A stretch of 36,020 bases of DNA from positions 3,122 to 39,141 of the forward strand of contig CAZIHL010000004.1 of the NCBI GenBank assembly GCA_964538815.1, written 5' to 3'. Position numbers and translations under genes: made by a program. Each line of letters begins with the position of its first letter. Position 1 is the first letter of the stretch. The notes below the pieces were generated by a model that was not told where the DNA came from, did not search any database, and saw nothing but the letters and a program-made list of their open reading frames with translations. This DNA comes from an uncultured Candidatus Saccharibacteria bacterium (GTDB taxonomy: Bacteria; Patescibacteriota; Minisyncoccia; Phycocordibacterales; UBA5272). Below are positions 8,315-35,972 of this stretch, one piece after another.

Positions 8315-8788
8315 ATGAGTACAGAAATAATTAAAGAATTAAGAGAAGAAACAGGTCTTTCTCTTGCTGAAATAAAAAAAGCATTAGAATTTGCAGATGG
8401 AGATAAAACTAAAGCTTTAGAGATTCTTTTTGAAAAAGCAAAAGAAGTAGCCGCTAAAAAAGGTGAAAGAGAGCTTGGTGCTGGTGTTGTAGGAGTATAT
8501 ATATATGGCGGTGGAACCGCAGCTGCAATGGTGGAGCTTATGTGTGAGACAGATTTTGTGGCTAAAAATGAAGAATTTAAAGCTCTTGCGAATGATATAG
8601 CATTTCATATTGTAGCTATGAATCCTACTTCCATAAATAATGAAAATGGAGAAAGTGAAGATACAGCATTACTTAAGCAATCTTTTATAAAAGATCCTTC
8701 ACAAACTATTGAACAAAAAATAGAAGCTGCGATACAAAAATTTGGCGAAAATACACAAATAAGAAAGTTTGTTAGATATAGTATCTAG
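8315..8788 (+). CDS. tsf: Translation elongation factor Ts (short form, 157 aa)
   Basis: N-terminal UBA-like LREETGLSLAEIKKALEFADGD and the core MCETDFVAKNEEF motif. It follows rpsB. Confidence 0.85.
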   Translation: MSTEIIKELREETGLSLAEIKKALEFADGDKTKALEILFEKAKEVAAKKGERELGAGVVGVYIYGGGTAAAMVELMCETDFVAKNEEFKALANDIAFHIVAMNPTSINNENGESEDTALLKQSFIKDPSQTIEQKIEAAIQKFGENTQIRKFVRYSI

Positions 8789-9250: not shown

Positions 9251-9278
9251 TTGAAAAAAGTATTTTTTATGATATAAT
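9251..9278 (+). promoter_or_regulatory. Promoter TTGAAA-16 nt-TATAAT with TGa extension
   Basis: TTGAAA at 9251-9256 and TGaTATAAT at 9270-9278, 24 nt upstream of the pseudo-tRNA module. Confidence 0.55.
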
Positions 9279-9301: not shown

Positions 9302-9410
9302 GCCACTTTAGCTCAGTTGGCATGAGCGTAGCGAGATTGTATACTGACAACGGTTTACAAAACCTACGATAGTTTTTGAAAAAGAGCTGTAAAATTACCA
9401 AGTAAATATT
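9302..9410 (+). other. Chimeric pseudo-tRNA module: first 20 nt of tRNA-Thr, shared linker, altered anticodon-arm hairpin, T-run, spacer
   Basis: 9302-9321 is identical to 9411-9430. It then diverges in the D-loop into CATGAGCGTAGCGAGATTGTATACTGACA, followed by ACGGTTTACAAAACC (tRNA has ACGGTTTTGTAAACCGT) and TTTTTGAAAAAGAGCTG. There is no T-arm and no 3' acceptor strand. Confidence 0.8.
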
Positions 9411-9486
9411 GCCACTTTAGCTCAGTTGGTAGAGCAACGGTTTTGTAAACCGTAGGTCGTCAGTTCGAGCCTGACAAGTGGCTCCA
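9411..9486 (+). tRNA. tRNA-Thr (anticodon TGT), CCA encoded
   Basis: Manual cloverleaf: GCCACTT/AAGTGGC acceptor, GCTC/GAGC D-stem, ACGGT-TTTGTAA-ACCGT anticodon arm, GTCAG-TTCGAGC-CTGAC T-arm, T-CCA. Confidence 0.95.
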
Positions 9487-10352: not shown

Positions 10353-11633
10353 CTATCTACTATCAATCTCAGCTGTCCAACTAGGCTCATAATTTCTAAG
10401 AGCATTAATTACAGCTTTTAATAACCAAAATGGAGCTACTATAGCATATATAATAAAAAACCAGATAATACTCAAATCAAATTTCATTTTTCCGTGTAAT
10501 ATTCTATGTCCCATATATAATGAAAAAAATACAGAAGCATATATAAAAATAGAAATAAACATAATAGCAGAAGTGTTTATAAAAAATGGATCCATATTAA
10601 ATTTATAATTTTTAAAATTAAAACCTATAGCTGACAATATTAAAGATTTATTATTTAAATAATTAATTAAGTTAAAAATTACAAAACAAAAAAGGAATAA
10701 AACAGATATTACTGACACGAAACCAGAAGGTAAAGTTATAAAGCCAACATTTCCATATTTTTTCTTAAAAAACAAATGTTTATAATCCAAAGCATTTCTT
10801 ATAAATCCATATATCCATCTCGATCTTTGTTTGTATAAAGCTTTTACAGTTTTTGGGGTATTAGTAAAAACATACGCGTCAGGAGCGTGATCTATTTTCA
10901 TGTGATTATGTTGCATACGTAATGCAATTTCTTGATCTTCTGTTGTGTGAGCATGTCTATACGGACCTATTTTATCAAAAACTTCTTTCCTAAAAATTGA
11001 AAATGGGCCAGGGGTAACATGTATTGCATTTACAAAACTAAGCATTTTTTTAATATATATTTGAAGCTCATAGTCAGCTTTTTGGGCTCTTTGTATAATA
11101 TTATTTTCAGTATTAGAAATAATAGTGGGAGCTACAGCCATAATAGTTGTATCTTCTATAAAATAACTCATTATTCTATTTAATGCTTCAGTATCAACCA
11201 TAGAGTCAGAGTCTAGACACCCCAAAAATGGAGTGGTTGTGTGTTCTAATCCTAGATTTTGTGCTGTGTATTTTCCTCCATTTGGTTTTGTAAATATTTT
11301 TATTTGTGAATGTCCCTCATATCTTTTCATTACTTCCCAAGTCTTACCATTATCAGTACTTCCATCATCTACTAAAATTAAAAATAATTTATTTTTTGGA
11401 TAATTTAATTTCAAAAGTGATTCAACAGTTTTAGATACATTTTCTCCTTCATTATAAGCCGGTATTGTTATGGTTACTCCAGGGTAATCCTCATCTTTTT
11501 CAAAAAGTTTAATTGCTTTTCTTCTTATTTTTAAATTTTTATAATTTTCTAAAAATATAATTAAAAAGTATATTTGTACATATAAAGACAAAAAACTGAA
11601 GCAGTAAAATATAATTTCAAATATTTTTTGCAT
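10353..11633 (-). CDS. Processive family-2 glycosyltransferase (PgaC/NodC/cellulose-synthase-like)
   Basis: N-terminal TM, VDDGSTD, DSDS, the QRSRW (QxxRW) motif, and C-terminal multi-TM region. Confidence 0.85.
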   Translation of the reverse strand: MQKIFEIIFYCFSFLSLYVQIYFLIIFLENYKNLKIRRKAIKLFEKDEDYPGVTITIPAYNEGENVSKTVESLLKLNYPKNKLFLILVDDGSTDNGKTWEVMKRYEGHSQIKIFTKPNGGKYTAQNLGLEHTTTPFLGCLDSDSMVDTEALNRIMSYFIEDTTIMAVAPTIISNTENNIIQRAQKADYELQIYIKKMLSFVNAIHVTPGPFSIFRKEVFDKIGPYRHAHTTEDQEIALRMQHNHMKIDHAPDAYVFTNTPKTVKALYKQRSRWIYGFIRNALDYKHLFFKKKYGNVGFITLPSGFVSVISVLFLFCFVIFNLINYLNNKSLILSAIGFNFKNYKFNMDPFFINTSAIMFISIFIYASVFFSLYMGHRILHGKMKFDLSIIWFFIIYAIVAPFWLLKAVINALRNYEPSWTAEIDSR

Positions 11634-11676
11634 AAATTAGATAATAAATAGAGTTGTTTCTGGTTTAGATTTATAT

Positions 11677-11685
11677 ATTTTAGCA
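11677..11685 (-). promoter_or_regulatory. Extended -10 element TGcTAAAAT (minus strand)
   Basis: Reverse complement of attttagca, 43 nt upstream of the GT2 start. Confidence 0.4.
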
Positions 11686-11715
11686 TATTTTTGACTTATT
11701 AAAAATAAGACTTTA

Positions 11716-11724
11716 TGATATACT
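11716..11724 (+). promoter_or_regulatory. Extended -10 element TGaTATACT
   Basis: 13 nt upstream of the pheS ATG. Confidence 0.45.
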
Positions 11725-11737
11725 TTTATTAAAAATT

Positions 11738-12538
11738 ATGGAAAATATTGATATTAATATTGAAAATAAAGGACATTCACATCCAATCACTATTTTAATA
11801 GACAAGATAATAAATATTTTTACCAAAATGGGTTTTGATGTTGCAGACGGGAGAGAGCTCGAAAGAGAATGGTTTAATTTTGACGCACTCAATGTTCCTA
11901 AAGATCATCCATCTCGCGATATGCAAGATACATTTTTCTTAAAATTGAAAGAGAATGATATGACTGGTAAAGCAGTTTTAAGAACTCATACATCAAGTGT
12001 GCAGATTAGATATATGACAGAAAAGATGCAAGAGATTAAAGATGAAAAATTAAAAGAAGATGATACTTTTCCAATTGCAATAATTTGTCCTGGGAAGGTG
12101 TATAGAAATGAAGCAACAGATGCAACTCATGAAGCACAATTTCATCAAGTTGAAGGACTGCTTGTGGGTGAAAATATTTCTATGGCCAATTTAAAAGCGG
12201 TACTTGAAAAATTTTTCTCAGAATTCTTTTTCAAAAATATTGATATCTTATTCCGATCATCATACTTTCCTTTTGTTGAGCCGGGTCTTGAAGTTGCAAT
12301 GAAATGTTTTAAATGTGATGGAAAAGGTTGTAATATTTGTAAAAATACAGGATATATTGAGATAATGGGAGCAGGAATGGTGCATCCAAAAGTTTTAGAA
12401 AATTGTGGGATAGATTCACGCAAATATTCTGGTTTTGCTTTTGGTTGTGGAATAGATAGGCTTGCAATGCTCAAATATGGTCTAGACGATATTCGTTTAC
12501 TCTACAATGGAGATTTACGAGTTATAAATCAGTTTTAA
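11738..12538 (+). CDS. pheS: Phenylalanine--tRNA ligase alpha subunit (short, lacks the N-terminal coiled coil)
   Basis: HPITILIDKI, DHPSRDMQDTFF, LRTHTSSVQIR, class II motifs and the CxxC..CxxC knuckle (KCFKCDGKGCNICKNTGYIEIMGAGMVHP). Confidence 0.95.
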   Translation: MENIDINIENKGHSHPITILIDKIINIFTKMGFDVADGRELEREWFNFDALNVPKDHPSRDMQDTFFLKLKENDMTGKAVLRTHTSSVQIRYMTEKMQEIKDEKLKEDDTFPIAIICPGKVYRNEATDATHEAQFHQVEGLLVGENISMANLKAVLEKFFSEFFFKNIDILFRSSYFPFVEPGLEVAMKCFKCDGKGCNICKNTGYIEIMGAGMVHPKVLENCGIDSRKYSGFAFGCGIDRLAMLKYGLDDIRLLYNGDLRVINQF

Positions 12539-12544
12539 AAATTT

Positions 12545-12646
12545 ATGACACAAATTATTTATATTTTAACAAATGAATCAATGCCAGATCTTATAAAGAT
12601 TGGTATGACTGATGAGAGAAGAAGAAAGATTGAAGAATTAGAATAA
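12545..12646 (+). pseudogene. 33-codon remnant of a GIY-YIG-like T5orf172/MUG113-type gene
   Basis: MTQIIYILTNESMPDLIKIGMTDERRRKIEELE* matches the characteristic N-terminus (IYILTN..MP.L.KIG.T) of that family, then stops 7 nt before pheT. Confidence 0.4.
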
Positions 12647-12653
12647 TAAATTT

Positions 12654-15149
12654 ATGAAATATTTACACAGCTGGTTACAAGAATATGTTGAAGACAAAAT
12701 TCCAAAAGGAGAGGACTTTGTAAAAGGTGTTTCAACTGATGCTTTTGAAGTGGAAGAATATTTGGAAATAGAAAATAAAATAAATAAAGAAAAAACAGAC
12801 TGGGTTTACGATTTAAACGTTTTACCAAATCGTAGCCATGACGCACTTTCACATTATTATATGGCGAAAGAAATTGCTACTATTTTTAATTTAAAATTAA
12901 AAGATTTAAATTTATTGAGTAGTGAATGGAAAAAAGATTTTAAAATTAAAAAAAATAATGAGGATTTTATAAAAATAAGTGATACAAAATCTTGCAGTAG
13001 ATTTATGGGTGTAAAAGTGAATGGGGTAGCCGTGAAAGAAAGTCCAGAATTTATAAAATACCGCTTAGAAGCAATAGGACAAAAAAGTATAAATAATATT
13101 GTAGATATTACAAATTACATACAATTTTCTTTTAATAAACCAATGCATGCGTACGATGGTGATTTAGTCTCAGGATTCTTAGAAGCAAGATTGGCAAGAC
13201 CGGCAGAACCAATAGATTTGTTAGAACATAAAGCAAATATTAGAGGAGGATTAGAAGTAAACAAAAGTGAAACTAAATTATTGGATGATAAAACTCTCGT
13301 AATCGCTGATGAGAAAAATGTTTTAGCGCTTGCGGGGATAAAAGGCGGTAAATTTTCTGGTATTACCGAGAATACAAAAAATATAATAGTAGAAAGTGCA
13401 AATTTTAATTCAAATTTAATAAGAAAGACTTCTCAAAAGTATAATTTAAAAACAGATTCTAGTAAAAGATTTGAAAATGGTATAGCTGATGATCTAGTAG
13501 AAATTGGACTGATTGAAACTTTAAAACTTTTAAAAGATTTTGCTGATGCTGGTAATATTGAGATAGGCGAAATAGTAGATAATTTTCCAAATGAGAAATT
13601 AAGCGAGTGGAAATATAAAGTATCTGTTTCTATGTCAGAAATAAATAAAGTTTTAGGAACTAATTTAAATAAAGACCAAGTAGAAAATATTTTTGAAAGA
13701 TTTGGATTTAAATATAAATATATTTCTACAAAAGAAAATATTGAAAATTTAATAAAAGAAGTAATTGGAAAACCATATAAAAACCCAAGTAGCATGAGAG
13801 CTGACGCACCGAACGCTTTTTCATGCTCTTCTTTAATTTCATATTTATATGAAGGAGTGTATATGCCATCTATATCGATAGATAAATATTTGTATACAAA
13901 AGATAAAAGTATAGAAAAAGACAATTTAAAATTTGGTGATTTGGTATTTTCGACTGGTGATGGAAAAGTTTATCTTGAGGGAGTTGAGTATAAAAGAGGT
14001 GAGAAGGTGGAAGGTGGAGTCGATCATCTTGGTATTTATGTAGGCGATGGAAAAATTTTACATTCTTCAAGATATTTAGAAAAGGGTACAGAGATAGAAT
14101 CATTTGAAGATTTTATAGAGAAAAAGAATGGAGAAGGTGAAAGAAAAATTGTAGGATATGGAAGAGTCTTAGAAAGTCTTGATGAAGAGAGATTTGTAGT
14201 AGAAATCCCAGCTGAAAGATTGGATTTAAGAATAAAAGAAGATATTATTGAAGAAGTTGGCAGAATATACGGATTAAATAATATTAAAAGCATATTACCA
14301 ATAATAAATAAAAAACCAAGCCAGAATAAAGATTTAATAGAAGAATATATTATTAAAAATATTTTATTAGAAAACGGATTTAATGAGGTAATGAATTATT
14401 CATTACGAAATAAGGGAGATATACAAATAATAAAATCTGTAGCTCAAGATAAAAATTATTTAAGAAATAATCTTTCAGACGGAATTCAAGAAACCATACA
14501 AAAAAATATTTTCAATATGCCACTTTTAAATATTAATGAAATTAAAGTATTTGAATTTGGTAATTGTTTTAAATTAAATGAAAATGGAGAAGAGATTGAA
14601 TGGAGAAGTTTATGTATTGGTATAGATGATGGAAAGAAAAATAAAAATTATACGGATTTAAAAAATAAAATATTATCAGAAATAAAAGAAAAGTTAGTAT
14701 TAGAAAGTATAGATTTTATAGAACATAAAAACGAAAAACAAAAAGAAAATAGATTTGAAATCAATCTTACAAAATTGTTAAATCAAACTAGGAAATCTAT
14801 TTTGAAAACAGATGATTTTATTTTTCCAATAAGGATCGATAGTATTGATTTTAAATATAAATCTTTTGCGTCAACCCCTTTTATAGTCCGCGATATTGCT
14901 TGTTGGGTAAATGGAAGCACAAATGAAGAAGATATAGAAAAAATAATCAGAGAAAATATTTCACCACTTTGTATAAAATTAAATTTGTTTGATAAATTTG
15001 AAAAAGAAATAGATGGAGTTAAAAAGAAATCTTTTGCATTTAGACTTATTTATCAGGATAAAGAAAGAACATTAACTGACGAAGAGGTAAATATTGAAGC
15101 AGATAGGATTTATAAGGCTTTGGAAGAGAGAGGTTATGAAATAAGGTAA
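12654..15149 (+). CDS. pheT: Phenylalanine--tRNA ligase beta subunit with an NlpC/P60-like insertion
   Basis: B3_4 motifs (INNIVDITNYIQFSFNKPMHAYD), the B5 start (VSMSEINKVLGTNL) and the B5 end (IPAERLDLRIKEDIIEEVGRIYGL), plus a C-terminal FDX-ACB-like domain. The ~155-aa insert contains NAFSCSS...HLGIYVGDGKILHSS. Confidence 0.9.
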   Translation: MKYLHSWLQEYVEDKIPKGEDFVKGVSTDAFEVEEYLEIENKINKEKTDWVYDLNVLPNRSHDALSHYYMAKEIATIFNLKLKDLNLLSSEWKKDFKIKKNNEDFIKISDTKSCSRFMGVKVNGVAVKESPEFIKYRLEAIGQKSINNIVDITNYIQFSFNKPMHAYDGDLVSGFLEARLARPAEPIDLLEHKANIRGGLEVNKSETKLLDDKTLVIADEKNVLALAGIKGGKFSGITENTKNIIVESANFNSNLIRKTSQKYNLKTDSSKRFENGIADDLVEIGLIETLKLLKDFADAGNIEIGEIVDNFPNEKLSEWKYKVSVSMSEINKVLGTNLNKDQVENIFERFGFKYKYISTKENIENLIKEVIGKPYKNPSSMRADAPNAFSCSSLISYLYEGVYMPSISIDKYLYTKDKSIEKDNLKFGDLVFSTGDGKVYLEGVEYKRGEKVEGGVDHLGIYVGDGKILHSSRYLEKGTEIESFEDFIEKKNGEGERKIVGYGRVLESLDEERFVVEIPAERLDLRIKEDIIEEVGRIYGLNNIKSILPIINKKPSQNKDLIEEYIIKNILLENGFNEVMNYSLRNKGDIQIIKSVAQDKNYLRNNLSDGIQETIQKNIFNMPLLNINEIKVFEFGNCFKLNENGEEIEWRSLCIGIDDGKKNKNYTDLKNKILSEIKEKLVLESIDFIEHKNEKQKENRFEINLTKLLNQTRKSILKTDDFIFPIRIDSIDFKYKSFASTPFIVRDIACWVNGSTNEEDIEKIIRENISPLCIKLNLFDKFEKEIDGVKKKSFAFRLIYQDKERTLTDEEVNIEADRIYKALEERGYEIR

Positions 15150-15188
15150 AAATACTGGGTGTCGCTGAAGGTGTGGTCTCGTATTTTT
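15150..15188 (+). terminator. Degenerate copy of the 9492-9532 hairpin (AAATACTGGGTG...GAAGG...TATTTTT)
   Basis: It shares the 5' arm AAATACTGGGTG and the GAAGG apex with the tRNA-Thr terminator. The 3' arm is partly mismatched or wobble-paired, and TATTTTT follows. Confidence 0.5.
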
Positions 15189-15201
15189 AAACTTTTTAAA
15201 A

Positions 15202-15210
15202 TGGTATAAT
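15202..15210 (+). promoter_or_regulatory. Extended -10 element TGgTATAAT
   Basis: 32 nt upstream of the ATG at 15242. Confidence 0.5.
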
Positions 15211-15241
15211 AAAAATATTATAAAATAATTAAAATAAATAT

Positions 15242-16234
15242 ATGTCAGAACAAATTAAAAAAGGGGTCAGTCCAAATTTTTTCTTCTTATCACTGGGAGT
15301 TATGGTAACACTTATTACTAGTGTTATAGCAGGTTTGTCATTATTTTTTGAAACTCTGTCTCATAAAATGCCTGATGTACTAAACTCTTATTATGAGTAT
15401 GGATATAGTTCTTATACATATGAAAGTATGAGAACTATGATAGCTATTCTTTTAATTTTCTTTCCAATATTTTTAATACTTTCATATTTTTGGTGGAAAT
15501 ACATTAAAAAAGGTTTTGAAAGTAAAAATGAAAAGTTATTTAAATGGATAATGTATATAATTTTATTTTTAGCTTCTCTTGTTATTGTTATTGATCTTGT
15601 AATTTTAGTAAATTATTTTGTGGCAGGAGAAATTACAAACAGATTTATTTATAAAGTATTAGGTACAGCTTTAATAGCTGGAATGATATGGGTATACTAC
15701 TATTTATCTTTAAAAGATTTTAATATAAGCAAATCAAAAAATATAATCGTAAAAAGAATTTTATCAAATATATCAATTATCATGTTTATTTCTCTTATAA
15801 TATTTGGATTTATGGTTATGGGCAGTCCTAAAATGCAAAGAGCTTGGAGGTTAGACGAAAGAAGAGAAAGCGATCTTCAGTCTATACAATGGCAAATTGT
15901 AAATTATTGGCAGCAAAGAGGGAAAATGCCTATTAGTTTAAATGATCTAAAAGATCCTATAAGTGGAAATTATACACCTCAAGATCCAGAATTTCAACAA
16001 GGTAAAATTTATGAGTATATTTTTAAAGAGAATACATCATTTATTCTTTGTGCTACTTTTTCTGAAGTTTCACAGCAAGGATTAATAGAAAATAATAATT
16101 CAGCAGTGATTGATAATGTAAAAAGTACATCAAATTATATATCTGAAGGAAGCAATTCTTGGAATCATGGTAAAGGTAGAGTTTGTTTTGATAGAACAAT
16201 CGATCCAAAAATTTACAAACCAAATAATCCGTAA
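15242..16234 (+). CDS. Polytopic membrane protein with a C-terminal pseudopilin (GspG/T2SS-G)-like globular domain
   Basis: About 5-6 TM helices, then SDLQSIQWQIVNYWQQRGKMPISLNDLKDP...YTPQDPEFQQGKIYEYIF. This resembles the pilin/pseudopilin head motif (Y...G.yP.sL..L...P.DP....Y.Y). No class III prepilin signal. Confidence 0.5.
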   Translation: MSEQIKKGVSPNFFFLSLGVMVTLITSVIAGLSLFFETLSHKMPDVLNSYYEYGYSSYTYESMRTMIAILLIFFPIFLILSYFWWKYIKKGFESKNEKLFKWIMYIILFLASLVIVIDLVILVNYFVAGEITNRFIYKVLGTALIAGMIWVYYYLSLKDFNISKSKNIIVKRILSNISIIMFISLIIFGFMVMGSPKMQRAWRLDERRESDLQSIQWQIVNYWQQRGKMPISLNDLKDPISGNYTPQDPEFQQGKIYEYIFKENTSFILCATFSEVSQQGLIENNNSAVIDNVKSTSNYISEGSNSWNHGKGRVCFDRTIDPKIYKPNNP

Positions 16235-16255
16235 TTAGAAAATACAAAATAAAAT

Positions 16256-17383
16256 ATGGTTAAGTTCTTATATAAGAAAATAATAAAACCGATACTTTTT
16301 TTGTTTCCAGCAGATTATATACATATTCTTTTTTTGAAAATAGGATCTTTCTTAGGGACGAGAAATATTTATAAGAGATTAGTAAATTACTTATTTTATT
16401 TTGAGAATAAAAATATTTCACAAAATATATTAGGTATAAATTTTAAAAATCCTATAGGGCTTGCTGCAGGATTTGACTATGACGCTGATCTTGTTAATAT
16501 ACTTTGTGATGTTGGATTTGGTTTTCATACTATCGGCACGGTTACTAATATGTATTATAAAGGTAATACGTATCCAATGTTGGGCAGATTACCAAAATCA
16601 AAAGCACTTTTAGTAAATAAAGGGTTTAAAAGTAATGGTATAGATAGTATAATTAAAAAAGGTGTAAATTTTAAAAAAACTATACCTTTGGGTATAAGTT
16701 TAGGAGTTACAAATAAAATATATGAAAATGAGGCTTCTATGTTAGAAGATATTTATGAAGATTTTTTAAAAGCAAATAATACTAATTATTTTGATTATTT
16801 TGAATTAAATATTTCTTGCCCAAATCTTACACATATTCCAGAAGATTTTGAGAAATTTGACACACCAGAAGGATTAAAAAAAGTATTAAAAAAAATAAGC
16901 ACTATCAATATAATTTATCCAATTTTTATAAAAATGCATTGTGAAAAGAGTGTAGAGCAAACTATAACGTTGTGTGAAATAGCTAAAGAATTTAATTTCA
17001 TAAAAGGTTTTATTTTTTCAAATCTTGTAAAAAATAGAGATAATATATCTTTAAATAAAGAAGAATTGAAAAAGTTTGAAAATAAGAAAGGTAATTTTTC
17101 AGGTAAGCCAACAGAAAGTCTTTCTAATAATCTAATAAGTGAAGTATATAAAAAATATAAAGACGAGAACAGATTTATTATTATTGGTTGTGGTGGAGTA
17201 TTTGAAGGGAAAGATGCTTATGAAAAAATAAAAAGAGGGGCTAGCTTGATACAGATGATAACAGGTATGATTTATGAGGGCCCAAGCCAAATAGGGAATA
17301 TTAATAAAGAACTTTCAAAACTCATTAAAAAAGATGGTTATCAAAATATAAAAGAAGTAATAGGTATAAATCATAAACAATAA
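16256..17383 (+). CDS. pyrD: Dihydroorotate dehydrogenase-family protein (PyrD-like)
   Basis: FKNPIGLAAGFDYDADL, NISCPN and IIGCGGV...GASLIQMITGMIYEGP are collinear with E. coli PyrD, including the N-terminal extension. Confidence 0.75.
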   Translation: MVKFLYKKIIKPILFLFPADYIHILFLKIGSFLGTRNIYKRLVNYLFYFENKNISQNILGINFKNPIGLAAGFDYDADLVNILCDVGFGFHTIGTVTNMYYKGNTYPMLGRLPKSKALLVNKGFKSNGIDSIIKKGVNFKKTIPLGISLGVTNKIYENEASMLEDIYEDFLKANNTNYFDYFELNISCPNLTHIPEDFEKFDTPEGLKKVLKKISTINIIYPIFIKMHCEKSVEQTITLCEIAKEFNFIKGFIFSNLVKNRDNISLNKEELKKFENKKGNFSGKPTESLSNNLISEVYKKYKDENRFIIIGCGGVFEGKDAYEKIKRGASLIQMITGMIYEGPSQIGNINKELSKLIKKDGYQNIKEVIGINHKQ

Positions 17384-17410
17384 AACGAGCGCTTAGCGCT
17401 CGTTGTTTTT
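17384..17410. terminator. Bidirectional terminator AACGAGCGC-tta-GCGCTCGTT followed by GTTTTT
   Basis: Perfect 9-bp GC-rich stem between convergent genes. Confidence 0.8.
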
Positions 17411-17596
17411 ATGACATTGGCATTCGGTTATACCATATATATGGAAAAGAAATCTTAACTCTTTCCAATTTTTACATTTCATACATGATACATTTATGCC
17501 TTCATATTCATAAAAACTTAAACTTTTTGCCGACTGTTCTTCCAGAGAGTTTAAAACTTCTTCGGAGAAAAGAGTGAGCTGTTTTTCATTTTTCAT
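17393..17596 (-). CDS. Small Cys-rich hypothetical protein (CxxC ... CxC)
   Basis: Internal ATG at 17596 (MKNEKQLTLF...) is preferred over the track start. It contains CMKC and CQCH. No family recognised, and the 3' end overlaps the terminator stem. Confidence 0.3.
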   Translation of the reverse strand: MKNEKQLTLFSEEVLNSLEEQSAKSLSFYEYEGINVSCMKCKNWKELRFLFHIYGITECQCHKNNER

Positions 17597-17691
17597 AAAA
17601 AGTATTTCTGAATTAAGTATAACAAAAAATAATAAACTAGTAAATTTCACTTTAAAAACACATTTTGTCAAATGAATTTTTATTCAAAAAA

Positions 17692-17700
17692 TGTTATAAT
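17692..17700 (+). promoter_or_regulatory. Extended -10 element TGtTATAAT
   Basis: 35 nt upstream of gyrB. Confidence 0.5.
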
Positions 17701-17734
17701 AATTATATAAAAATACACTTTTTTATTAAAAAAT

Positions 17735-19906
17735 ATGGCAAAAGAAACTAAAAAATCATCATACGGTGCTGAGTCTATTCAAGTTTTAGAAGGTCTTGAA
17801 CCAGTCCGTAAAAGACCAGGAATGTATATTGGATCAACTGGTCCTGATGGATTACATCATTTAATATGGGAAATTTTTGACAACTCTCGTGACGAAGCCA
17901 TGAACGGATATGCGAATAGGATAGAGGTGGCAATTTTACCAAACAATATTATTCGTGTAGTTGATAATGGTCGTGGTATTCCAACTGATATTCATCCCAA
18001 GACAAAAGTTTCAGCACTTGAAACAATTATGACAACACTTCATGCTGGTGGAAAATTTAACAGTGACGGCTATTCTGTATCAGGAGGACTTCATGGAGTG
18101 GGGGCATCTGTTGTGAATGCACTTTCTATATTAACAAAAGTAGAAGTTCATAGAGATGGTAAAATTTTCATACAAGAATATTCAAAAGGTATTGCAAAGG
18201 CCAAAGTAAAAGAAATTGGGAAGACAAAATTTAATGGAACAATAGTTACTTTTAAACCAGATATTGAAATATTTAAGGAAGGTGTGGAATATGAATGGAC
18301 ACGTATAGTGTCTCATTTGCGTCAGCAAGCCTATCTTGTAAAAGGACTAGAGATAGATATCTTAGATTTAAGAAAAAGATACCAAGATCTCTCTGATGAA
18401 AAATCTTCCTTTAATTTTGTGAAAGAAATAGAAGGGGAAAGCTATATTAAAGATTTAGATTATAATAAATTTTCTGGATATAAATCATTTTCATTTTTCT
18501 TTGAAGGTGGATTAAAGAGTCTTGTCTCTCATTATAATTTTAATGATAAACCAATACATAAAAATATCTTTTATGTAGAGAAAAAAATAGATGAGCAAGA
18601 AAATAATGTAGGGGTAGAAATAGCATTACAATATGTAGATGATTATCCTACAAAAATAGTAGCTTTTGCAAACAATATTCCTAATGCAGAAGGAGGAACT
18701 CATGTTTCTGGGTTTAAGACTACACTAACAAGACTTATAAATTCCTATGCTCGTAAAAATAATATTTTAAAAGAAAAAGATGAAAATCTTACAGGAGACG
18801 ATGTTCTCGAAGGATTAACAGCCGTAATTTCTGTAAAGCTTCATGAAATACAATTTGAAGGACAAACTAAAGCAAAGCTTGGATCTATGGAAGCGCAAAC
18901 TGCAGTATCTAGTGTATTCTCACAAGCTTTCTCTGACTTTTTAGAAGAACATCCAGATGATGCAAAAGAAATTATAGGAAAAGGTTTATTAGCTTTGCGT
19001 GCTAGAAAAGCTGCAAAAGCTGCAAAAGATTCTATATTAAGAAAATCTGCATTAGAAGGAATGACTCTTCCTGGAAAGCTTGCCGATTGCCAAAGTAATA
19101 GTGCAGAAGAATCTGAATTATTTATAGTAGAGGGAGACTCCGCTGGAGGATCAGCTAAAATGGGTCGTGATAGAAAGACTCAAGCCATTCTTCCATTAAG
19201 AGGTAAGATTTTAAATGTAGAAAGAGCGAGACTGGATAAAATGCTTGGATCTGAACAGGTTAAAAATTTAGTTTTGGCTATGGGTGCAGCAATAGGAGAT
19301 ACTTTTGATATTAAGAAAATGAGATATCATAAAATAATTATTGCTACAGATGCCGATGTTGATGGAGAACATATACGAACACTGTTATTAACATTTTTCT
19401 TTAGATATTATAAGGAAGTTATCGATAGTGGATTTATTTATATTGCTCAACCACCACTTTATAAAATAATGCAGGGTAAAAAAGTTGATTATGCTTATTC
19501 TGATGTTGAAAAATTTTCTATAGTAGGTGATGTAAATCTTGAAGAGGTAGCAGAAGATGATGATTCTGTAGAAATAAATGAAAATGAAGAACTTTCAGAA
19601 GAATTAAAAGATGCAGGATTTGAAGATACTAATAAAAAATCAAAAGGCAAGAAAGGTAAAGAAAATAAAATTGAAGAAAAGAAAAGTTCTAAAATTAGGA
19701 TACAAAGATATAAAGGTCTTGGAGAAATGAATGCTGAAGAATTATGGGAAACAACAATGGATCCTAAAAATAGAGTTCTTAAACAAGTTTCAGCAAAAGA
19801 TGCAGAAGAAGCAGATAAAATATTTGATATGCTTATGGGTAGCGAAGTAGGGCCAAGAAAAAGCTTTATTCAAACTTACGCGAAGGAGGCGGATATTGAT
19901 TATTAA
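17735..19906 (+). CDS. gyrB: DNA gyrase subunit B
   Basis: GHKL ATPase motifs (GLHHLIWEIFDNSRDE, DNGRGIP), Toprim (EGDSAGG, DADVDGEHI) and the C-terminal YKGLGEMNAEELWETTMDP. Confidence 0.95.
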   Translation: MAKETKKSSYGAESIQVLEGLEPVRKRPGMYIGSTGPDGLHHLIWEIFDNSRDEAMNGYANRIEVAILPNNIIRVVDNGRGIPTDIHPKTKVSALETIMTTLHAGGKFNSDGYSVSGGLHGVGASVVNALSILTKVEVHRDGKIFIQEYSKGIAKAKVKEIGKTKFNGTIVTFKPDIEIFKEGVEYEWTRIVSHLRQQAYLVKGLEIDILDLRKRYQDLSDEKSSFNFVKEIEGESYIKDLDYNKFSGYKSFSFFFEGGLKSLVSHYNFNDKPIHKNIFYVEKKIDEQENNVGVEIALQYVDDYPTKIVAFANNIPNAEGGTHVSGFKTTLTRLINSYARKNNILKEKDENLTGDDVLEGLTAVISVKLHEIQFEGQTKAKLGSMEAQTAVSSVFSQAFSDFLEEHPDDAKEIIGKGLLALRARKAAKAAKDSILRKSALEGMTLPGKLADCQSNSAEESELFIVEGDSAGGSAKMGRDRKTQAILPLRGKILNVERARLDKMLGSEQVKNLVLAMGAAIGDTFDIKKMRYHKIIIATDADVDGEHIRTLLLTFFFRYYKEVIDSGFIYIAQPPLYKIMQGKKVDYAYSDVEKFSIVGDVNLEEVAEDDDSVEINENEELSEELKDAGFEDTNKKSKGKKGKENKIEEKKSSKIRIQRYKGLGEMNAEELWETTMDPKNRVLKQVSAKDAEEADKIFDMLMGSEVGPRKSFIQTYAKEADIDY

Positions 19907-27929: not shown

Positions 27930-28003
27930 GCTCCCATAGCTCAGTTGGTTAGAGCACACGGCTTATATCCGTGGGGTCCTAGGTTCAAGTCCTAGTGGGA
28001 GCA
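27930..28003 (+). tRNA. tRNA-Ile (anticodon TAT), no encoded CCA
   Basis: GCTCCCA/TGGGAGC acceptor, GCTC/GAGC D-stem, CACGG-CTTATAT-CCGTG anticodon arm, CTAGG-TTCAAGT-CCTAG T-arm, discriminator A followed by CAT. Confidence 0.85.
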
Positions 28004-28005
28004 CA

Positions 28006-35564: not shown

Positions 35565-35591
35565 AAATCTTTTGCAAATAAAAAGAATTTT

Positions 35592-35600
35592 TGTTATAAT
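35592..35600 (+). promoter_or_regulatory. Extended -10 element TGtTATAAT
   Basis: About 18 nt upstream of the first pseudo-tRNA module. Confidence 0.5.
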
Positions 35601-35617
35601 TATTTAACAATAAATAT

Positions 35618-35670
35618 TTCGCGACCGCTCAATGGTAGGAGCGTAGCGAGAATAATTAAAAACAAAATAT
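35618..35670 (+). other. Short pseudo-tRNA module: D-arm of an unidentified tRNA (GCTCAATGGTAGGAGC), shared linker GTAGCGAGAATAAT, leader AAAACAAAATAT
   Basis: Read directly. The linker start GAGCGTAGCGAGA is identical to that of the tRNA-Thr module at 9324-9336. Confidence 0.7.
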
Positions 35671-35785
35671 TCCGTGGTAGCTCAGCGGCAAGAGCGAAGC
35701 GAATATAAATGACAGTTGCGCCAACTGCGACTTTTAAGAAAAGAGTTGGTTGAAATTAAAATCGTAAAAATTGAAAACAAAATAT
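35671..35785 (+). repeat. Pseudo-tRNA-Asn module, copy 1 (115 nt)
   Basis: The first 18 nt equal the tRNA-Asn 5' end. It continues as CAAGAGCGAAGCGAATATAAATGACA, hairpin CAGTTG-cgc-CAACTG, CGACTTTT, and GAAAAGAGTTGG...AAAACAAAATAT. Confidence 0.85.
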
Positions 35786-35897
35786 TCCGTGGTAGCTCAG
35801 CGGCAAGAGCGCGAATATAAATGACAGTTGCGCCAACTGCGACTTTTAAGAAAAGAGTTGGTTGAAATTAAAATCGTAAAAATTGAAAACAAAATAT
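35786..35897 (+). repeat. Pseudo-tRNA-Asn module, copy 2 (112 nt)
   Basis: Identical to copy 1 except for a 3-nt AAG deletion in the linker (GAGCG-CGAAT). Confidence 0.85.
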
Positions 35898-35972
35898 TCC
35901 GTGGTAGCTCAGCGGTAGAGCAGTTGGCTGTTAACCAATTGGTCGCAGGTTCGATCCCTGCCCACGGAGCCA
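35898..35972 (+). tRNA. tRNA-Asn (anticodon GTT), CCA encoded
   Basis: TCCGTGG/CCACGGA acceptor, GCTC/GAGC D-stem, GTTGG-CTGTTAA-CCAAT anticodon arm, GCAGG-TTCGATC-CCTGC T-arm, G-CCA. Confidence 0.95.

Follow-up and report, generated by a model that had tools for sequence, protein, structure and literature searches.

The DNA analysed here is a 36,020-nucleotide (nt) stretch of contig CAZIHL010000004.1, referred to as the window, and all coordinates are window positions. Directly before its tRNA-Asn gene lies a tandem array of tRNA-derived units, one short and two long (115 and 112 nt), that together span 35618-35897. The genuine tRNA-Asn(GTT), with its CCA encoded, follows at 35898..35972 on the + strand and is called by ARAGORN and by the Rfam tRNA model (71.5 bits). 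Tandem Repeats Finder delimits a repeat at 35654-35923 with a period of 112, 2.4 copies, 95% matches and a score of 494. Long unit 1 (35671..35785, 115 nt) and long unit 2 (35786..35897, 112 nt), both on the + strand, differ solely by an AAG indel (3/115 positions) that unit 2 lacks. Each opens with a 30-nt copy composed of the leader AAAACAAAATAT and of TCCGTGGTAGCTCAGCGG, which equals nt 1-18 of tRNA-Asn. It then continues with the shared core GGCAAGAGCGAAGCGA, a CAGTTG-CGC-CAACTG hairpin (35713-35727 in unit 1 and 35825-35839 in unit 2), a U-run/GAAAAGAG hairpin and an A/T-rich tail ending in AAAACAAAATAT. The short unit (35618..35670, + strand) reads GCTCAATGGTAGGAGC then GTAGCGAGA, and comprises a degenerate pseudo-5' fragment with GAGCGTAGCGAGA followed by a truncated tail (AATAATTAAAAACAAAATAT). 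A preliminary description had already reported the tandem units with their AAG indel, the leader joined to tRNA-Asn nt 1-18 and the hairpin of both long units; all of these are borne out by the sequence and, for the repeats, by Tandem Repeats Finder.

The same linker had been placed at the tRNA-Thr locus as well, where we find one homologous unit. This single module (9302..9410, + strand) consists of tRNA-Thr nt 1-19, a core and a tail, and immediately precedes the genuine tRNA-Thr(TGT) (9411..9486, + strand; ARAGORN and Rfam tRNA). Its 47-nt non-tRNA core (9320..9366, + strand) has hardly changed across five lineages. The window has three copies of the motif GAGCGWAGCGA (9324, 35639 and 35692) against 0.08 expected, a count reached by 0/100 shuffles, and the other three tRNA genes of the window are without such a unit. 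The modules follow a common plan: (a) the leader and the first 11-20 nt of the resident tRNA, identical to the adjacent gene, (b) a shared core that begins after the D-loop GG, and (c) an A/T-rich tail that copies the -10/leader region. Upstream of the array a strong predicted sigma70-type promoter lies at 35572..35600 on the + strand (TTGCAA, 17 nt, TATAAT, with TG; 10/12), and its orthologue occupies the same position after a 52-amino-acid (aa) open reading frame (ORF) in the relatives L035, L038, L041, L126 and L127. The tRNA-Thr locus has a corresponding, likewise strong predicted upstream promoter at 9251-9278 (11/12, with TG).

The units are tRNA-derived without being tRNA genes or members of a described RNA family, in agreement with the preliminary description. 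Neither ARAGORN nor the Rfam tRNA model (RF00005) calls them even at E<=10, the only calls at the two loci being 35898-35972 and 9411-9486, and no Rfam family of any kind matches them at E<=10. Both the T arm and the 3' acceptor strand are missing from them. A search for the 3' halves of split or permuted tRNAs in the window found the T-loop motif and 3' acceptor strands only in its five intact tRNAs. A T-box identity finds no Rfam match at the same threshold; the units hold no intrinsic terminator or attenuator on the + strand, only minus-strand look-alikes, and the downstream gene is a tRNA. An assignment to ToxI-like type III toxin-antitoxin systems also fails, as the units precede tRNA-Asn and the next genes vary in relatives. 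Box C/D-like, K-turn and T-box-like readings of the linker were dropped by eye, their defining motifs being missing.

Each long unit holds a 14-codon ORF (MTVAPTATFKKRVG; 35709-35753 and 35821-35865) with no obvious ribosome-binding site. Its counterpart has 13 codons with the same GGT TGA end in L035 and only 8 in L038. A coding role was dropped on reading the sequences, since the ORF is not kept in L038; it is probably due to chance. Frames through the Thr core likewise show no coding-type conservation.

The window has a GC content of about 28% and encodes a short elongation factor Ts (EF-Ts), GyrB, PheT and type IV pilus proteins, while close homologues of its RsmI are named Candidatus Nomurabacteria or Paceibacteria. 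Because of this gene content and these RsmI homologues, the host is assigned to Paceibacteria-like bacteria of the Candidate Phyla Radiation (CPR)/Patescibacteria. The tRNA-Asn loci of relatives, retrieved via RsmI homologues of 77-82% identity, all keep the order rsmI, 52-aa ORF, promoter and tRNA-Asn; a metagenome scan by RsmI added only relatives of <=61% identity, none with shared synteny. The copy number of the units, whose variation among related strains had been raised by the preliminary description, indeed varies upstream of tRNA-Asn. The module is absent in L126, reduced to AAATATTCCGT (an 11-nt stub) followed by 17 nt in L041, and rearranged in L127/L128, in which a 5' fragment (TCCGTG.TAGCTCA) precedes a second TATAAT-ttttgag promoter copy. 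One unit homologous to that of the window is found in L035/L036 and in the five independent assemblies L038/L039/L040/L124/L125. At tRNA-Thr, where relatives were retrieved via homologues of the upstream 138-aa protein, the module is absent in L133 and L142 and present once each in L139/L140, L267-L271, L272 and L273; the L139 locus has an extra 7-nt ATTGCCA stub.

These relatives also bear on whether the array is real. An independent Logan contig (L001) runs through the promoter and the short unit and ends inside the repeat, 13 nt into unit 1, and single homologous modules occur in at least ten independent assemblies of relatives. Because L001 reproduces the start of the array and relatives carry homologous modules, the array is no quirk of this window's assembly, from which alone the exact count of two long copies is taken. 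Short-read contigs (L267-L272, L001 and L141) end inside or just past the second leader and tRNA-5' repeat. Since contigs of several samples end at this second repeat copy, the modules systematically break de Bruijn assemblies. A narrower objection is that the second long copy is an artefact, an AAG indel variant of the population having been threaded twice in a metagenome assembly. In its favour, the window is probably part of a metagenome-assembled genome, the repeat interrupts short-read contigs of the same organism (an identical RsmI is found only on short Logan contigs), and no relative has more than one full unit. Against this, the junction between the long units (ATTGAAAACAAAATAT, then the unit start) differs from that between the short unit and unit 1 and needs read support of its own, and the units are shorter than typical reads. 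We consider such an artefact very unlikely.

Sequence comparison of the modules points to a common origin. All modules share a derived GGTA->GGCA change and a linker G.A.CG.AG..A at the same place. The Asn units of the relatives lack the GAGCGWAGCGA motif and have in common with those of the window GGCA after the D-loop GG, an AAATG.CAGTTG...CCAAC.GC block, GTTGGTT.A and a tail GTAAAATT...AAAATAT. In the Thr core, 9343-9364 is the reverse complement of tRNA-Thr nt 29-54 (22/26, with 0/1000 shuffles as good), and this inverted segment is preceded by a T-loop-like motif. Past nt 18, the Asn module has no significant similarity to tRNA-Asn (p = 0.08 inverted, 0.39 direct); its interior finds an equally good or better alignment in reverse-complemented tRNA-Thr, and the Asn module of L035 has a Thr-like D-loop (AGTGGCAC). 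The shared core, the GGTA->GGCA change and the linker suggest a single origin of the core, a scrambled and partly inverted tRNA copy to which the Thr and the Asn modules both trace back.

The preliminary description had joined the linker to at least three different tRNAs. Two of them, Asn and Thr, are found here, always with the junction after the D-loop GG; the third, a foreign tRNA proposed as the source of the D-arm of the short unit, is not supported. The 5' part of the short unit matches the Asn pseudo-5' part without gaps at 17/26 positions, 8/9 differences being transitions, and a profile of the modules (nhmmer) aligns to the unit over model positions 2-40 at E=0.19. Given this gapless and mostly transitional match, the simplest reading of the short unit is an older, diverged and internally deleted Asn unit, although its 5' part may have had a tRNA-Gly-like origin.

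The rates of change at the Asn locus suggest little constraint. Between L035 and L038, the Asn module beyond nt 11 is 88.1% identical and the adjacent intergenic DNA 89.7%, compared with 95.5% for rsmI, 94% for rsmI third codon positions and 97-100% for several other intergenic regions. Between the window and L035, the Asn module is 69% and third codon positions 64% identical. As these identities match those of adjacent intergenic DNA or third positions, the Asn modules by this measure drift like neighbouring unconstrained non-coding DNA. Since they diverge this fast, we consider it moderately probable that the array consists of rearranged partial duplicates of the promoter-proximal region of the tRNA gene, a tolerated by-product of template switching and unequal recombination. 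With similarly modest confidence, we lean towards placing it in a small, lineage-specific family of pseudo-tRNA leader modules within a clade of Paceibacteria-like CPR bacteria. Under this by-product reading, modules would arise by replication template switching at a tRNA gene, and the core shared by the Thr and Asn modules would presumably reflect copying between loci. Copy number would shift by unequal recombination or slippage between the ~30-nt direct repeats, giving a series from zero through a stub and one copy to the two copies and a relic of the window. Transcription starting at the upstream TTGCAA-17-TATAAT promoter would make the array a long 5' leader of the pre-tRNA, which RNase P would remove by cutting at the true tRNA 5' end. 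The Asn-locus modules would then have no sequence-specific function of their own. Their sole likely effect would be on the yield of tRNA-Asn, through additional -10-like boxes and through surplus 5' acceptor strands able to compete for the one 3' acceptor strand available.

Several observations weigh against so neutral an account. The two long units of the window are too recent to reveal constraint. The first 11-20 nt of the modules are still identical to the tRNA where the remainder has drifted; this could reflect gene conversion or selection, and presumably they are kept identical through recombination with the adjacent gene. The Thr core has 0-3 differences per pair and three substitutions in total among five lineages (the window, L139, L267, L272 and L273). 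Among the same lineages, third codon positions of rpsB and tsf are 60-73% identical, the 40 nt upstream of the Thr module 50-62% and the module tail 51-83%. Because the core is near-invariant while third codon positions, tails and flanks diverge, this comparison indicates that it is under strong purifying selection on its sequence, and disposable DNA is not the whole story for the family. Two of the three substitutions change the loop ACAA to GTAA in a hairpin TTGTA.ACTG/CGGT.TACAA. In RNA folding, sequestration of the pseudo 5' end exceeds chance only in L035/L038 and in the short unit (p = 0.005-0.02), which hints at selection on predicted RNA folding there. The L035 and L038 units have fold-energy z scores of about -3 and, like the short unit, bury the pseudo 5' end in a 5' hairpin. 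The short unit folds at -15.1 kcal/mol (z -3.77) with a stable hairpin UUUCGC...GCGAGA enclosing CGCUC/GAGCG. A universal P1 helix between the leader/5' end and the linker was considered and dropped; it is significant only in these same units and not in the Thr or window Asn units.

One Thr module also appears to have been exchanged between lineages. Between the window and L139, its core and tail are 98% identical, the flanks about 52%, and the tRNAs differ at 3-4 nt. A module so much more similar than its flanks indicates a recent recombinational exchange. Because the Thr core is near-invariant and one module appears to have been exchanged, at least one part of the family probably has a function, be it as promoter, as antisense leader or as both.

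One such function would be that of a cis-acting leader RNA, in which a tRNA-derived decoy or antisense segment controls the folding or maturation of the tRNA on the same transcript. Competition for the 3' acceptor strand would be one means of control, pairing of the Thr module with the anticodon arm another. The near-invariant core and its antisense relation to tRNA-Thr nt 29-54 agree with such a role, as do the pseudo-5'-end hairpins that exceed shuffles. Furthermore, in the predicted minimum free energy (MFE) structures of read-through transcripts from 5/5 module-bearing loci tested, the pseudo 5' strand base-pairs with the real 3' acceptor strand, which gains 2.7-12 kcal/mol in stability over separate folding. 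At the Thr locus the inverted segment also pairs with the real anticodon arm (-60.3 versus -53.2 kcal/mol for separate folds). These MFE folds are thermodynamic predictions that leave out co-transcriptional folding and tRNA tertiary structure. On the other side, the Asn modules change as fast as the non-coding DNA around them, no compensatory base-pair changes are seen in the module alignment, and relatives without a module exist (L126, L133 and L142). Fold energies are not unusual relative to shuffles, with z of -0.64 to -1.97 for the remaining units and -0.25 for the Thr core. A functional leader of this kind is possible but unlikely. We give an equally small chance to a broader version, a domesticated tRNA rearrangement. 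Its "anti-tRNA" leader, combining a sense copy of the tRNA 5' strand with an antisense copy of the anticodon/T-stem region, would gate tRNA folding and RNase P processing, possibly with a promoter of its own. Selection would maintain it at tRNA-Thr(UGU); it would also have reached tRNA-Asn, and recombination via conserved tRNA segments would have passed it between CPR lineages.

Promoter content offers another view of the array. The preliminary description had the whole array co-transcribed with tRNA-Asn from one TGtTATAAT promoter. That promoter is present at 35572-35600 and read-through transcription from it is plausible, but each long unit has a -10-like box of its own. A promoter scan finds TTAAGA-17-TAAAAT (9/12, + strand) at 35734..35762 in unit 1 and at 35846-35874 in unit 2, and the Thr core contains TTGGCA-17-TATACT (9317-9345, 10/12) in every lineage scanned, its -35 improved by the module-specific GGTA->GGCA change; all of these are predicted sites matched to the sigma70 consensus. 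By eye, a -10-like TAAAAT/TAAAAAT precedes the next tRNA 5' end by 13-17 nt, a distance that the promoters of relatives without a module share. Unit tails are only about 60% identical to those module-less promoters, no better than controls. The idea that a unit tail copies the native promoter is weakened accordingly, and its remaining basis is the fixed distance of 12-17 nt between the -10-like box and the tRNA start.

These sites could mean that the array amplifies promoters in tandem, each unit adding one for a single-copy tRNA and carrying the tRNA piece as a passenger. The region holds 9 promoter-like sites versus 3.3 +/- 1.9 in shuffles, including the box in each long unit, and the second promoter copy of L127/L128 is clear. 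Such matches are, however, common in DNA of 28% GC. The boxes of the Asn units are weak, at 9/12 and without TG, and none was found in the L035 module. Promoter amplification also leaves unexplained the invariant 17-nt GC-rich spacer and the conservation that extends 20 nt past the -10 of the Thr core. We regard it as quite unlikely to be the explanation of the array.

The preliminary description further proposed that the linker-bearing unit moves or recombines between tRNA genes, as a non-autonomous mobile element targeting the 5' parts of tRNAs across loci and genomes would. Recombination is supported by the patchy presence of the units in relatives and by the exchange between the window and L139; autonomous mobility is not. 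In favour of a mobile element, one core occurs at two different tRNAs, stubs resemble imprecise losses, the near-identical Thr modules extend through their tails, and tRNA-Asn is an integration hot spot in relatives. Ordinary homologous recombination via conserved tRNA segments nevertheless explains the exchange. The features of miniature inverted-repeat transposable elements or derivatives of insertion sequences are missing. On reading the sequence, no terminal inverted repeats are seen at the unit ends, and the flanking direct repeats are 24-30-nt copies of the local leader and tRNA with no fixed target duplication. Searched with a profile built from nine modules, the window and relatives (394 kb) yield no full-length copy beyond the known positions beside the cognate tRNAs, and no recombinase linked to the modules was found. 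In scans of viral contigs, a loose pattern gave only chance matches, the exact Thr core none, and the hairpin pattern two matches in GC-rich coding DNA; a phage BLAST gave no match. A scan of a genome collection with GCTCAN{2,5}GGYADGAGCGWAGCGA, whose pattern code D excludes the common GGCAC variant, returned 32 matches, all in high-GC DNA without tRNA context and attributable to chance. We regard mobility of the unit as such as highly improbable.

The hot spot itself lies on the other side of the gene. In L035 (also L036), an island at 11097-18158 directly 3' of tRNA-Asn encodes a 510-aa large serine recombinase, a DNA methylase and a helix-turn-helix (HTH) protein; it is unrelated to the module. 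The end of the recombinase ORF overlaps the 3' half of tRNA-Asn, and the protein has no relatives in IMG/VR. Strains L127-L132 share an identical RsmI protein yet have differing genes right after tRNA-Asn (from nt 73/74), some without an encoded CCA, which marks the tRNA 3' end there as a recombination or island junction. Together, the island and the variable genes of these strains identify tRNA-Asn in relatives as an integration hot spot on its 3' side. At the Thr locus of L139 (6687-6791, also L140), unusually GC-rich DNA runs from the end of tRNA-Thr to the contig end; it looks foreign for a genome of about 28% GC and could be an insertion or a chimeric assembly.

For annotation, the units should be read neither as pseudogenes of foreign tRNAs nor as a mobile element; they mark a recombination-prone tRNA locus that can break short-read assemblies. 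CPR genomes are streamlined, and a repeat of ~280 nt before a single-copy tRNA is unusual in such a genome. The loci form a stepwise series (none, stub, one copy, array) of how template switching and unequal recombination may remodel stable-RNA genes. The most interesting point of the family is the near-invariant Thr core, which may act as a promoter, an antisense or decoy leader, or both. It is a concrete candidate for cis control of tRNA expression or maturation, about which, to our knowledge, very little has been learned in these uncultivated bacteria.

Three further features of the window lie apart from the array. A tRNA-Ile with anticodon TAT (UAU) at 27930-28004 is kept in all relatives examined; in most bacteria, AUA is read by a lysidine-modified CAU tRNA. 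The pheT gene (12654-15149) encodes a PheRS beta subunit with an insert at aa 371-474 of weak NlpC/P60- or RipC-like similarity, and tsf (8315-8788) encodes an EF-Ts of only 157 aa.

Several known systems resemble the array in part. Integrative elements leave partial tRNA duplications as attL/attR scars or cis-mobilizable remnants. In these, direct partial-tRNA repeats likewise flank an insert and presence is patchy among strains, and tRNA-Asn serves as a hot spot for islands in relatives. As a rule, it is the 3' part of the tRNA that is duplicated in such scars. The present repeats consist of the 5' part and the leader, enclosing only ~85 nt of tRNA-derived DNA with no integrase remnant, and no 3' tRNA duplicate of at least 12 nt is found in the flanks. 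Tandem P1-P2 promoters of stable-RNA operons are similar in that a stable RNA gene is preceded by at least two sigma70-like promoters in a row; the boxes inside the present units are predictions, and we know of no classical tandem promoters that carry fragments of the downstream RNA gene. In spacer-derived RNAs of tRNA precursors such as 3'ETS-leuZ, and in leaders that mimic tRNAs (T-boxes and the thrS operator), an RNA from or within a tRNA-related transcript gains its specificity from tRNA-like or complementary sequence. The present units match no T-box or other Rfam model. They also differ from T-boxes and the thrS operator in that no codon-presenting specifier loop and no terminator/antiterminator pair was found, and the regulated gene would be the tRNA itself.

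Template-switch quasipalindromes come closer in mechanism, in that a hairpin-forming segment (the anticodon arm in the Thr module) is present as adjacent direct and inverted copies. Short-range template switching is among the topics treated in reviews (PMC7954356, PMC5941160). It is a mutational mechanism and defines no element family, and it leaves the conservation of the Thr core unexplained.

The closest described analogue, and by its architecture an analogue rather than a homologue, is the 178-bp repeat of Escherichia coli tyrT/tyrV (rttR/tpr). As in these tRNA-linked repeats, the units are tandem and adjoin a tRNA, each with a terminal fragment of that tRNA. The E. coli repeats are co-transcribed with the tRNA, as proposed here, and their copy number is shaped by unequal recombination. 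The tyrT-tyrV locus, which we checked, has three units of 178 bp, and the last of them overlaps the tyrV 3' end by 19 nt. The E. coli repeats carry a 3' fragment and lie downstream, whereas the present units carry the 5' end and the leader, lie upstream, contain a rearranged or inverted tRNA interior, and occur at two different tRNAs in a different phylum.

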